A DNA stretch of 63,984 nt, filler included, from Octopus bimaculoides (taxonomy: Eukaryota), in assembly GCF_001194135.2 (NCBI RefSeq). It is 5 parts of 5 records of this genome, joined end to end, with 100 filler letters (N's around TTAATTAATTAA, not from the genome) between each part and the next. Parts side by side here need not be neighbours in the genome. Positions count along the whole stretch, not along the records: positions 1 to 26,098 come from NC_068985.1; positions 26,199 to 41,538 come from NC_068989.1; positions 41,639 to 57,400 come from NC_069009.1; 2 more parts are not named here. One strand, given 5' to 3'. The position numbers and the translations under genes are program-made. Positions 210 through 45,103 of the stretch are shown one piece after another (the first letter of the stretch is position 1; each line of letters begins with the position of its first letter). Below the pieces are notes generated by a model, which ran no database searches, was not told the DNA's origin, and saw nothing but the letters and a program-made list of their open reading frames with translations.

Positions 210-249
210 GGCGACTCGAGTTTCAGGGCTATTTCCCTTCGTCATGGCC
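210..249 (-). ncRNA. Minimal type-I hammerhead-like motif
   Basis: Minus strand GGC C(A)UGACGA AGGG-AAAUAG-CCCU GAAA CUCGAG UC GCC. Stem II is 4 bp, stem III is the perfect palindrome ACUCGAGU, cleavage triplet GUC, stem I GGC/GCC. One extra A in the core. Confidence 0.6.
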
Positions 250-519
250 GGTATGACAGACTTTAACAGACTTTATATGGAAGTTTATTACCTATGTAAA
301 CATTTCTGTATAAGGTCAAATTCAACTCTTAATTCAAGTTGAATAAATTACTTTACACATCCTCAGGGATATAAATTTCAAATTTTGATATATAACCAAG
401 GAGATCGATTCATAAGGAATTTATTATAGACCTTTGTGGACGGATTTTTGCTATTTTGGTAACGATTACATGTTTTATCTTACCAATACATTCGGTAGAT
501 ATCATTATATGAACATATA

Positions 520-720
520 TATATAGTAAATCCCCACCAAAAGAAACGAAGAACAAGCACAAGAAAAAACAACAACGCGAGGACGTGGTACATGCAAGGT
601 ATTAGCAGACGCTTATAGAAGGGAAGAAAGGTAGTTTTATGTTGCGAGCAAAGCTCTTCGTCAGAAACAGGAGACGGAGGAGAGTCCCAGAGAAAAGTTA
701 AGATGGAGTGAAAAAATTGC
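520..720 (-). mobile_element. Short Penelope-like/retrozyme-like repeat (family F) with degenerate hammerhead at 634-668
   Basis: Similar to 8595-8760. Minus strand GUUU CUGACGA A GAGC-UUU-GCUC GCAA C AUA AAAC (GAAA changed to GCAA). Confidence 0.55.
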
Positions 721-739
721 CAACGATCCACACATAGGG

Positions 740-860
740 GTTTTTCACACAGTTGCTTCTACGAAATTTACTCACAAGACCTTGGGTCAAGGTACTACGC
801 TGTGGAACTGATCTCGAAACCACATGATTAGAAAGCGAGGTTCTTAACCTCACAGAAGTA
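740..860 (-). mobile_element. Degenerate SINE family B head
   Basis: ctacgaaatttactcacaagaccttgggtc...aaccacatg resembles the reverse complement of the family B head. Confidence 0.5.
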
Positions 861-869
861 CATAAGGTA

Positions 870-1090
870 ACAAACTAGTAGAATTGGCCGAGCGTCAGAA
901 AAATGTCTGAATGTGAAGTGCCGGCCTTTTCTCCGGTTCTTTACATTCTGCGTTCAAAACCCTGCAGGGGTTAATTTTGTTTTTCCTTCCTTCAGAATAG
1001 ATAAAATAAAGCATCAGTCAAGTACAGGAGATTGAGGTTATCGATTAGTGCCACGCCCTCAAAATTGTTAACCTTATTCTTAAATCCGAA
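870..1090 (+). mobile_element. Degenerate SINE family C
   Basis: ctttacattctgcgttcaaaacc...gataaaataaagcatcagtcaagtac aligns by eye to family C at 12163-12378. Confidence 0.6.
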
Positions 1091-1744
1091 AGAATTATTT
1101 TCCAAGCAAATGACTGTTGTAAGATCTTTAATCTGATATATAAAAAAACAGCATTTAAAACTTTCTTGGGAAAGTTTTCTTTTAAGGGAGGCAACTCCTA
1201 CAATAAGGGAAATAACTGTCATTATTTTGTTGCGTCTGGGGAGAGTCATTTTCTTTTTGTGCCTTATAACTTAACACACCCACCGGTAAAATTTCCACAT
1301 ATTTCTTATTTTTATTTTCCTAAAATTTTCGTTGCGTCTTGCAACCTTTTCAACAGTCTTTAACACACGAACTCACATGAAGAATCTTGCAAACCAAATC
1401 CAAAAACGAATTATGTCATTATTGCTATATTTTGGGACACATTTTTTTCCTTATTGCCAAATAAACACATGTACTATACTGTATATTCGTCCTTCATTCA
1501 TTTATTGTTGTTCTTATTTCATTTTACGGATCTTTCTGGTTTGACGGGCAACACTTTTCATTTATGTTTTATGTAGTGTTTTTGGTAGAAAACAAGTGGT
1601 GCCCATCAAATCAGAAAGATCCCATTTTACTTCCACTGTGACATCTTCAGTGACTCTTCCATCCCACGTGTATCTCCCTGTTCTGTTTAGTCCAATAATT
1701 ATGTTATTACTTTTACTTTTATTTTTTATCTTTTACTTGCTTCA

Positions 1745-1940
1745 ATCAAAAGATTCCTGCCATATTGTGGTACAGCCTTACAAAATTTTAGTCGAACGAA
1801 TTGACCCCAATATTTATTTTTCTTAAGCCTCTGGAGGATTTTTTTTTTGCTGAACCGCTAAGTTACGGCGACGTAAACACATCAACACCGGTTCTCAAGC
1901 AGTGTTGTGGGTACAAACACTCACACACACACACGTATCA
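1745..1940 (-). mobile_element. SINE family B 3' half
   Basis: gctgaaccgctaagttacggcgacgtaaacacatcaacaccgg is the reverse complement of the family B tail. Confidence 0.75.
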
Positions 1941-2009
1941 CGTGATCGACCAGACTATTGGAGGTTGTTGTACATCGCTGGTCACAATGTGCTTTGCATC
2001 GTTTTAGCT

Positions 2010-41680: not shown

Positions 41681-42113
41681 CAAGGATCTTCCAGATGTAT
41701 ATTACTGCATACCTCTCCCGCCTTCTCTCCAGCGAGTAGAGTCTTAGCTGTTTCAGTCTTTCCCAATAGCTGACCAGTTGCAAAGAGACAATCGTCTTTG
41801 TGAATCTTCTCTGGATTGCTTCATGGTCCGCTGTTAATTTCACACTGGTGGGTGACCATAGCTGTGAGCAGTAACCCAGGCGGCTGAGGACGAATGTCCT
41901 CCAGAGGACCATCATGGTTTCCTTATCTCTGGTTCTGAATGTTCTCAGAATCCATCCAGCCAGTCGTGTGCACTTTGTTGCCATTCTGGTATCATCACTC
42001 ATGTCGATACCCAGGTCTCTCACTGATTTAGGCTCTGGGATTGGAATTCCCTGTGGACCAGTGTACTCTGTAAGTTTCATATTCAGTTTTGGACGTTGGT
42101 AGCACAGGGCTAT
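41681..42113 (-). mobile_element. CR1/L2-group LINE reverse transcriptase C-terminal fragment
   Basis: VRDLGIDMSDD...GWILRTF...LGYCSQLWSP...IQRRFTK...ERLKQLRLYSLERRRER. Confidence 0.92.
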
Positions 42114-42874
42114 ATATATANNNNNNNNNNNNNNNNNNNNNNNNNNNNNNNNNNNNNNNNNNNNNNNNNNNNNNNNNNNNNNNNNNNNNNNNNNNNNNNN
42201 NNNNNNNNNNNNNNNNNNNNNNNNNNNNNNNNNNNNNNNNNNNNNNNNNNNNNNNNNNNNNNNNNNNNATATATATATATATATATATACATGCATTTGT
42301 GTGTGTGTATATATATAGATATATACATGTATGTATGTGTGGGTGTGTATATATATGTATATATGCGTGTGTTTATATATCAGTTCATGCACTTCCCTAA
42401 CAGTTCCTGAGTGACCTAGTGTGTAATTGAAACCCCATCAAAATCTTTAAATGTTCTTTACACAAGCTCCATCATCCAACTATACCAGCATCAACACCAC
42501 AAGGCCTCAAATATATTGCTTGTTTTGTCCTTGTACTTTTTTTTTGTTTTCTTTTTTCAATTTTATAATTGCAGGGATGGAGATGTTGCTGTTTTGTATG
42601 AGTTTCTTATTTATTTTCTTTATTCAGAAATAAAATATTCTTATTAAATAAATGTTGTTGTTTGTTTCATGTCCTCTTCAAAGTTTATGAAATGTTTTAA
42701 TGACATCAACGATATACAGTTCTTGCTGGGAAGGATAAAGTTTCTTGAAAGAAGAAATTCAAAGGAAAACTTTGGTATGATGGTAGAAAGACTGTCATGC
42801 TTACAGGTGACGTGTCTTCAAGTTTTCTATCCAAAACGGTTTTACAACACGATATTTATCTGTTTCAGTCATTC

Positions 42875-43174
42875 AAAACAGCAACACCAGTTGTCAAGCC
42901 ATGGTGTGTGTGTGTGTGTGGGGGGGGACAAACACAGACAGAAGCACACGTACACACACACATATGTGCAATGGGCTTCTTTCAGTTCCCATCTACTGAA
43001 TCCACTCACAAGGATTTGATTGGCCCAGGCTATAGTAGAAGACACTTGCTTAAAATGCCATGCAGTGGGACAGAACCCAGAACCAAGTGAAGCAAATTTC
43101 TTNNNNNNNNNNCTGAATCCACTCACAAGGATTTGATTGGCCCAGGCTGTAGTAGAAGACACTTGCTTAAAATG
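42875..43174 (-). mobile_element. SINE family B fragment plus partial repeat after 10-N gap
   Basis: 42982-43102 is identical to 55071-55191; 43113-43174 repeats part of it. Confidence 0.85.
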
Positions 43175-43844
43175 GTGGTTAGGATATTGCACTCATGATC
43201 ACTAGACAGTGGGTTCAATCCTCAGACCAGGCAGCATGTTATATTCTTGACCAAAGCCCTTCAGTTCACTTTGCTCTGCAGGTGGGAGACTCGCAGAACC
43301 ATTTGCACATCAACAGAAATGCTTTATGGCATATCTTAGATCTCCTTACATTCTGAGTTCAAATCCCACTTGCCTGCAAATGGCAACTGGAAATCACTCC
43401 AGTGTTCGTCCCAAGTCTAGTCATGGTATCCAATGTTCCAGTGATTTATTTAATTGCGATAGGATGGGCCTCATCGAGGAAATGACAAGGTTCTGGGACA
43501 TGTGGCAATTTGCTATGCTTGAGAATACTAAGTAAAATTGGTGTCAACCACACATACAAGCTTGTCCTTTACCGGTGCCAGTGCCAAATAAAATGCACTC
43601 ATGCTGGTGCTGCATAAATGCACCTGTGTTGGTGACACGTAAAGAGCACCCAATCCACTCTGTAAAGTGGATGGTATTAGGAAGGGCATCCAGCTGTAGA
43701 GACCATTCCAAAGAAGACAACTCAAGCCTGGCCAGCTCCTTGTCAAACTGTCTGACCCAGACCAGAATGGAGAGTGGACGTTAAACGATGATGATGATGA
43801 TGATGATGATGATGATGGTGATGATGATGATGATGATATGCTTA

Positions 43845-44220
43845 CAAGGGTTTCTTTTAGTCTCTGCTTACCAAATCCACTCACAAGGTTTTGGTCTGCT
43901 CAAAGTTACAGCACAAGACAATTATCGAAGGTGCCACAATGTGGGACTGAACCTAGAGCTATTTGGTTGGGAAGTAAACTTCTTACCACACAGCTACACC
44001 TTCACCTATATGTATACATATATATGTGTACATATATATATGTATACATATATATATGACAAGCTTCTTTCAGTTTCCATCTACCAGATCCATTCACAAG
44101 GCTTTTGTCAGCCTGAGGCTATAGTAGAAGACACTTGCCCAAGGTGTCATGCAGTGGGACTGAACCTAGGACCATGTGGTTGGGAAGCAAACTTCTTACC
44201 ATTCAGCCACACCTGCTTGT
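43845..44220 (-). mobile_element. Two tandem SINE family B heads
   Basis: Each has ccaaatccactcacaagg...gggactgaaccta...aaacttcttacca. Confidence 0.85.
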
Positions 44221-44289
44221 GTTTGTATGTGTTTTGTCTTATCGCATGATAATGGTAAGTAAGCACCACGGCCAGACAAATAGTGCCAT

Positions 44290-44700
44290 ATGCTTCCAAT
44301 GTTTCATGAAAATTTTCCCAGACATGGTGAAACTTTACCTTGCTTGGAAATAGGCAAAAATAGTAAATACCCCCCTTTGGTTATGAATGATCATGGGATT
44401 GCTTGTAGAAATTTACCCCCCAAGGCACAAGTCCAGGCAAGTTTGTTTATGGAAGACCAGCAATTGCCCATGCATACTGGGCTCCCCTCTTCACGCCACC
44501 GATGTTATCCAAGGGAAAGGCAAAGGGGCCGATACAGCTTGGCACCTGTGATGTTGCAACTCATTTCTACAGATGAGTGAACTGGAGCAACATGAAATAA
44601 AGTGTCTTGCTCAAGAACATAACACAGCCTGGTCTGAGAACTGAACTCACTATCTCATGATTGTGAGCCCAAGACTCGAAACACTGAGCCATTACACCTT
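44290..44700 (-). mobile_element. tRNA-head SINE family D, near full length
   Basis: gaactggagcaacatgaaataaagtgtcttgctcaagaac...gaactgaactcac...cactgagcca. Confidence 0.75.
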
Positions 44701-44948
44701 CATTGGAAATCAGTAAAAGAATTGTGTATATACAAGTAAATAAGTAAAGGAATTGTATGTGTATAAATGTTTGTGTGTGTGTGTGTGTATGTATATATAT
44801 TAAATTTATTTGGTCTGTGCATTACGCATCCTTGACTGTTAATTGAAGCGACCAATCCATGGCCATTATTTGAAACAACCAATCAAACGAATCCATGTGT
44901 TTTAAATTTTATATTACTTTCGATTGCATTGTTATCCTTTCTCCACTT

Positions 44949-45103
44949 CTAACAAAACTGTCCGATGAACGGGAACGTGAAACTCAGAGTAACGTTTTTT
45001 TTGTTATATTTCTGCTGCTTTTAAATAAAGCATATTACTCTACCTCTGGTATTTGAGTACTCTTTTTTTCCACCTTGTTGCACATTTCATGTGCTTACTC
45101 CGG
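44949..45103 (+). mobile_element. Family G short repeat, about 155 bp, with hammerhead at 44957-44995
   Basis: Core and stems II/III identical to 16661-16700; ends gtgcttactccgg then (TA)n. Confidence 0.8.

Follow-up and report, generated by a model that had tools for sequence, protein, structure and literature searches.

Nine sites in a 63,984-nucleotide stretch of DNA from Octopus bimaculoides (five joined parts of assembly GCF_001194135.2, filler included; hereafter the window) are probably mutated type-I minimal hammerhead motifs lying at the 3′ ends of short, high-copy repeats. These repeats are likely the 5′-truncated and often inverted ends (pseudo-long terminal repeats, or pseudo-LTRs) of Penelope-like elements (PLEs) at microsatellites, and most individual copies of the nine sites are likely dead. 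A separate repeat, family E, carries at 45832 a hammerhead core predicted to cut after position 45855. More tentatively, and with rather less than even confidence, we propose that an animal mobile repeat, family E, contains an active, non-circularly permuted hammerhead, which would be the first outside environmental RNA and would work with a break in its chain between A9 and G10.1, an arrangement not among the six permutations thought possible, and that a hammerhead with C in place of U at core position 4 (U4C), missed by searches based on CUGANGA, ranks among the most abundant ribozyme motifs of this genome.

The window as a whole is AT-rich animal DNA with 33 gaps and dense microsatellites. 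Public genome reads and contigs from two related species (runs X1 and X15) were placed on families A and C (family A, region 44900-45106 at 80% likeness; family C, region 27450-27690), and RNA reads were also placed on both families (run X21 for the family A count); for families B, D and E, the evidence comes from the copies in the window.

Nine minimal hammerhead sites in at least four families

An original prediction, made from the sequence alone, had named nine hammerhead-like stretches, all of which are present at their coordinates, and had held that every copy departs from the canonical core; a strict type-I descriptor requiring that core and run across the window indeed returned no match. 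A relaxed descriptor, widened after the data had been seen to accept C or U at core position 4, was judged against 30 local dinucleotide shuffles. At a score of at least 7, it gave five matches (shuffle mean 0.1, maximum 1), and at a score of at least 3, the excess was weak (10 matches; shuffle mean 4.3, maximum 10). Four of the five high-scoring matches are predicted sites. The fifth, at 63240-63298 on the minus strand (score 8), lies in AT-rich DNA without a repeat partner and is probably due to chance.

The type-I block order proposed for all nine sites, with stems I and II paired, holds at six by the relaxed descriptor (210, 634, 8674, 16661, 27549 and 44957) and at a seventh, 27509, by majority letters, but fails for the pair within 28271-28345. 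The site at 27509 on the minus strand escapes the descriptor; masked self-BLAST of the window, by which the repeats were compared, shows it to be the inverted twin of 27549 on the plus strand, and the majority letters of genome contigs restore its A9 and A15.1. Both motifs of the 28271-28345 pair fail the descriptor, the right arm belonging to family A by homology (82%) and the left arm retaining only the 5′ half. The division into at least four families stands: A (16661, 44957 and the 28271 pair), B (634 and 8674), C (27509/27549) and D (210, a single copy in the window). The two members of family B are clearly related (local score 83 against a maximum of 46 in 2000 shuffles) and carry different single changes, from which we infer an intact family core. 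The copies are as follows.

210..249, minus strand: family D type-I minimal hammerhead with a palindromic stem III, an extra or changed base at core position 3 and a predicted dimer fold with intermolecular stem III
634..668, minus strand: family B minimal hammerhead with A13C and a broken stem III pair, in a unit of ~200 nt ending at a TA tract near 510-525
8674..8710, minus strand: family B minimal hammerhead with A6U, in a unit of ~175 nt between two (TA)n tracts
16645..16732, plus strand: family A insertion in (TA)n, with a 13-nt inverted copy of the 3′ tip (16645-16657), a U4C hammerhead (16661-16700), AATAAA and no tail
27402..27625, both strands: family C inverted pair meeting at stem I, with hammerheads at 27509-27555 (minus) and 27549-27595 (plus), the minus arm having a longer tail into (TATC)n
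28190..28444, both strands: family A-like inverted pair with badly decayed cores, G5U in both, the right arm running through the tail to (TA)n
44801..45104, plus strand: longest family A copy, ~300 nt between microsatellites, with an upstream part carrying two CCAAT words, a U4C hammerhead (44957-44995), AATAAA and a 70-nt tail

The minimal or palindromic stem III that had been claimed is seen both by the descriptor and by dimer cofolding, in which an intermolecular stem III dimer is the predicted minimum for four of the nine window copies. The TA-rich or microsatellite setting is likewise supported, with a (TA)n tract within 120 nt on the 3′ side at six of the eight sites measured, against 13% of random sites; at 27549, the distance to the tract spans another repeat, and the 16645 copy has TA on both sides of its inverted 3′ tip and motif. 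Rfam hammerhead models had no match in three closely scanned stretches, the five small-region Rfam scans that include these gave zero ribozyme families, and a whole-window scan gave, among the matches listed (150 of 346), only microRNA and small nucleolar RNA models on microsatellites.

The U4C core of family A and part of family C

Families A and C are very abundant in genome reads of the two related species, in agreement with the predicted high copy number. Over the family A motif, the summed contig depth, which gives rough abundance only and does not equal copy number, reaches 1.4 million in X1 and 0.85 million in X15, single contigs standing at ~37-55; as a rough figure, the copy number is of the order of 10^4. 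Core position 4 (44963) is C in more than 92% of the placed depth in both species. Within the 39-nt motif, only N7, the stem III loop base, 44994 and 44995 vary at 8% or more in X1. Variation at N7 amounts to 16% in X1 and 75% in X15, the 44994 variant converts U-G to U-A and so keeps the pair (13% in X1, 88% in X15), and the majority letter at 44995 (96%) restores a C-G pair. Because none of the five C>T places in the X1 tally (15 changes, all listed) falls at 44963, and the X15 tally, in which two places of other kinds are outside the rows listed, has zero C>T places, C4 is the state of family A in both species. U4C in this family is therefore a family state and not decay, and the variation avoids the core.

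For family C, the majority letters of the two species restore G8 (69% and 76%), A9 (88% and 58%), A15.1 (84% and 64%) and stem II. Position 4 is C at 54% (10 contigs) and 44% (5 contigs) in the thin pile on the minus arm; on the plus arm, T at position 4 stays below 20% in X15, and the X1 tally includes one C>T place outside the rows listed. Loose-end lines contain both C4 and U4 forms, and T4 in this family could also come from CpG decay of C4. The original prediction had seen a danger to itself in family consensuses without an intact core, stems that do not covary and consensus RNAs that do not cleave. On this point, the outcome is divided: majority letters repair G8, A9, A15.1 and the stems, but the majority core of family A is itself non-canonical.

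U4C in family A and part of family C is likely a slow variant. The one case of U4C or CCGANGA found in the literature is a viroid, in which the change considerably lowers activity in vitro while the natural variant retains enough activity in vivo (Perreault 2011); Lunse 2017, Arkhipova 2017 and Weinberg 2015 may already report U4C in PLE hammerheads. A rather unlikely alternative is that motifs with U4C have lost cleavage and persist because they serve some other purpose, for instance as a pause signal or as a fold that the reverse transcriptase (RT) of the element recognises. The lowered activity in vitro would fit, as would the poor cleavage of minimal hammerheads even as dimers and the fact that copies retain the whole motif rather than starting at the cut. 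It is opposed by the viroid variant, active enough in vivo, and by the variation in family A, which sits exactly where hammerheads tolerate change. We regard the family-wide U4C core as a modest new variant. The family A pattern had zero matches in metagenome and viral contigs. A general U4C pattern matched eight metagenome loci (GC 46-60%); on inspection by eye none showed stems I and II, and these loci were rejected as chance.

Penelope-like anatomy

The view of the nine sites as minimal, likely dimer-dependent type-I hammerheads of the Penelope-like type is supported by inverted, 5′-truncated pairs, one-sided tails and (TA)n targets. Among the family A joints listed, 11 of 15 change strand, and 10 of these connect 44947-44956 with 44998-45033 in opposite orientation; the 3′ ends of the copies lie near 45035 or 45104, where (TA)n follows. 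Minimal hammerheads in metazoan PLEs are reportedly treated, to judge by its title, in work of 2017 by Lunse et al.

Metazoan genomes are described as holding thousands of minimal hammerheads each, mostly solitary with some opposite-strand pairs, which are ascribed to truncated PLEs and cleave weakly as dimers (Cervera and de la Pena 2014, PMC4209133). The octopus sites share with them the type-I order, the tiny or palindromic stem III, the mostly solitary occurrence, the opposite-strand pairs and the many families per genome, as well as, in families B and C, a bulged base after A9 and the G10.1-C11.1 pair. They differ in the family-wide U4C of family A and part of family C, where the accessible text of that paper reports U3-A8 only, and in the A-U pair at the base of the 3-bp stem II of family A. 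Taken alone, the nine sites add one more invertebrate to this known pattern and are largely known.

Endonuclease-bearing PLEs of the Neptune/Naiad type leave inverted truncated partners, one-ended tails and insertions at (TA)n targets (Craig et al. 2021, PMC8557442). The present copies resemble these in 5′ truncation, the adjacent inverted copy, the one-ended tail and the (TA)n targets. Unlike them, they are linked to no open reading frame (ORF) here and carry in family A a tail of ~70 nt, against 30-40 nt, and Naiads are described as being without canonical hammerheads.

A parent element would, on this basis, be transcribed through its terminal repeats, and two hammerheads would form a dimer by way of the palindromic stem III, with slow cleavage after NUH, a step suggested by the 2014 survey together with the cofolding. 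The RT of the element and its putative GIY-YIG endonuclease may then start reverse transcription from a nick in (TA)n, and synthesis would in most cases break off early, often immediately 5′ of the hammerhead. The product would be a short terminal piece, either alone or beside an inverted partner, and tailed at one end, which is the anatomy observed, and family A and part of family C, in which C is observed at core position 4, would have spread in that state.

Several points weigh against this account. No PLE RT or GIY-YIG match was found by Pfam among 249 reading frames of the window, and no ORF elsewhere was tied to any of the copies; membership among PLEs thus rests on anatomy. Family A is without the usual G10.1-C11.1 pair, and no pile-up of RNA ends or cut ends was seen on families A or C in fragmented RNA-seq, which is unreliable for such ends. 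In family A, the start of most copies lies no more than ~10 nt from stem I, and across 44942-44970 the RNA depth increases about fivefold; a start as sharp as this fits a fixed-length, non-autonomous unit as well as it fits truncation.

RNA evidence and the retrozyme question

The further claim of the original prediction, that the copies represent independent retrozyme families yielding circular RNAs, is not supported: the copies are solitary or in inverted pairs, tandem hammerhead units are absent from the window, and RNA is sparse and comes from both strands. Family A received 1011 of 12.9 million RNA records, divided about equally between the strands. No RNA circles were seen in the reads of families A and C, the library type being ill-suited to circles and a weak test for them. 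A single RNA joint of two reads connects 45035 to 44992, the first base past the predicted cut, and is too thin to use. RNA loose ends before 45024-45027 also reveal, at 45027-45106, a second family that has the 3′ part of family A and other upstream sequence.

What defines a non-long terminal repeat (non-LTR) retrozyme is a tandem arrangement of units, the presence in them of canonical hammerheads and plentiful circular RNA (Cervera and de la Pena 2020, PMC7229834; Li et al. 2026 preprint). The octopus repeats are similarly non-coding, PLE-related and equipped with a type-I hammerhead, and the unit sizes of families B, A and E overlap the published range, but none of the three defining traits was seen in the nine-site families. 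It would nevertheless be conceivable, if improbable, that families A to C are self-propagating, non-autonomous elements (SINE-like, after short interspersed nuclear elements, or retrozyme monomers) derived from terminal-repeat transcripts, starting just before the hammerhead, ending after AATAAA and mobilised in trans by PLE proteins. The sharp 5′ boundary of family A near 44946-44955, upstream of which X15 shows no depth, and the 5′ boundary common to both family B copies speak for such units, solo monomers of retrozyme families have been described in the literature, and the joint from 45035 to 44992 would fit as well, although it may represent one molecule or a genomic rearrangement. The lack of tandem units in the window, the minority of copies that extend upstream, the inverted partners, the variable 3′ ends and the few RNA records, alike on both strands, argue against it, and we continue to prefer truncated PLE ends.

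Family E, a hammerhead core in S-G-C order

When the window was searched for a perfect core together with stems I-III, whatever the order of the blocks, there was exactly one match, at 45832-45904. This, the only perfect core of the window, is permuted and lies just outside the span covered by the original prediction, which missed it. It contains every conserved hammerhead base, in S-G-C order, and belongs to a separate, microsatellite-bounded repeat of ~380 nt that self-BLAST finds at 45831, 61864 and 63675. Its parts and copies are as follows.

45832..45904, plus strand: complete hammerhead core in S-G-C order, beginning one base after an assembly gap, in an element extending to (TA)n near 46090
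45832-45838 and 45839-45847, plus strand: helix II strand and helix P strand, both at the 5′ end
45855 and 45856-45862, plus strand: C17 of the GUC site, which follows the stem III strand, and stem I strand
45864-45870 and 45871-45874, plus strand: helix II partner and GAAA
45882-45890, 45891-45897 and 45898-45904, plus strand: helix P partner, stem I partner and CUGAUGA
63824..63894, minus strand: second copy, likely dead, with complete pairing in helices II, III and P, C3U and a missing C at the cut site
61878..61948, minus strand: duplicate of the second copy, identical to it and adjacent to a gap, excluded as non-independent; the element starts after (TG)n(TA)n near 62104, and the unit is ~380 nt

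At 45832, pairing is complete in stem I (7/7), stem III (4/4), helix II formed with the 5′-end strand from G10.1-C11.1 (7/7) and helix P (9/9), for 27 base pairs in 73 nt when counted pair by pair and 28 by the scoring script. Helix P, which links the far ends of stems I and II, is paired at 9 of 9 positions in both copies. With the upstream strand, helix II is paired at all 7 positions, whereas the strand after A9 can provide 4 of 6 pairs. The second copy shows a two-sided change in helix II and a one-sided change in P. From this pairing, family E would fold as a four-helix pseudoknot cut after 45855, with the upstream strand most likely forming most of helix II. The copy at 45831 also has a 39-nt tandem duplication (45895-45973) that repeats the CUGAUGA block.

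Three folds remain for family E, namely a split core, a hybrid in which one or two pairs after A9 are followed by the upstream strand, and a conventional SGC fold held off by a competitor; of these, we favour folds in which the upstream strand supplies most of helix II. The third, in which the strand after A9 provides helix II of a conventional type-SGC hammerhead and an upstream 16-base-pair competitor acts as its inhibitor, is a rather unlikely contender. In its favour, the strand after A9 at 45832 can supply, besides its 4 helix II pairs (of 6), another 4 in the I/II interaction helix, and a bulged A precedes this pairing, as it does in SGC and PLE motifs already described; yet the upstream strand pairs 7/7 in the two copies, and where one pair has changed on both sides, the downstream strand did not follow.

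The evidence for a ribozyme fold has clear weaknesses. The window holds only two independent copies, the covariation is not significant (56 of 500 shuffles score as high), with one secure two-sided change, the second two-sided count being a misaligned column, and energy minimisation predicts a fold other than that of the ribozyme, the program being unable to form pseudoknots. That the fold is a chance arrangement in a repeat rich in inverted segments is nonetheless very unlikely. The fold was found after the fact and, under loose rules, 6 of 570 shuffles reach the three-stem score and 4 of 3056 the total pair count; but the matching shuffles span 134-188 nt, the real fold uses 92% of its 73 nt where no shuffle's best exceeds 85%, and family E shares its set of four helices with known SGC ribozymes and has both a GUC site and G10.1-C11.1. 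Twister, hepatitis delta virus (HDV)-like and pistol readings were compared by eye with the respective consensus and dropped. The family E patterns had zero matches in viral and prokaryotic genome contigs.

Rearranged hammerheads, including type SGC and HRIMA-1, were all obtained from assembled metatranscriptomes although RefSeq was searched, in a study that assumes the core strand to be inseparable from helix II (Eckert et al. 2023, PMC10085705); the accessible part of its supplement has no entry for Octopus, Metazoa or Eukaryota. Family E agrees with type SGC in block order, the short link between stems I and II, the presence of all core bases and a 9-nt interaction strand between stems III and I that pairs just beyond helix II, according to our reading of the SGC-2 primers. 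It differs in being an animal genomic repeat, not a metatranscriptome sequence, and in the placement of the strands that best form helix II and the interaction helix, which lie at the 5′ end and leave the chain open between A9 and G10.1, as though an SGC ribozyme had been cut open there. The pseudoknot (pistol-like) hammerhead shows that helix II can be dispensed with where one G10.1-C11.1 pair is extended by a pseudoknot helix (Zhan et al. 2024, PMC11300833). A short stem after A9 can thus work, as the hybrid fold proposed for family E would need; however, A9 there stays joined to G10.1, the connectivity is different and the accessible text offers no precedent for a break at this point. In print, S-G-C order was found only for metatranscriptome RNAs, literature searches on octopus hammerheads and later SGC work gave no report of a U4C family or an SGC repeat variant, and the octopus repeat paper does not mention ribozymes.

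Other repeats in the window

The repeat at 27630-27715 ends in (TA)n and reaches a summed depth of up to 2.2 million in one species (organism A) with almost none in its relative (organism B); it is a very recent, lineage-specific expansion, and its minus strand carries what we take to be a word like the A box of tRNA genes. Two long imperfect palindromes, at 22256-22629 and 20252-20318 (377 and 68 nt), resemble miniature inverted-repeat transposable elements and are without a hammerhead core. Young repeats with copies 87-98% identical lie at 17618-19401, 21684-21976, 40496-40929 and 56394-56601, and include a 275-nt inverted pair (17908-18182 / 19127-19401). Three abundant SINE-like families of 150-220 nt have ~10 copies each (for example, 25912-26075, 34470-34654 and 38229-38696). 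An Exo_endo_phos match at 4470-4835 on the minus strand (E 2.8e-6), the sole such find in the Pfam scan, is likely a fragment of a long interspersed nuclear element endonuclease.

Implications

With U4C fixed in a family of ~10^4 copies in two species, descriptor searches based on CUGANGA undercount the ribozymes of PLEs, and the same family provides a natural test of whether such motifs must cleave at all. If our reading of family E is true, it would move non-circular permutations of the hammerhead from environmental RNAs into chromosomes, would offer many genomic copies for tracing the origin of the permutation, and would put to the test the view that core strand and helix II are inseparable.

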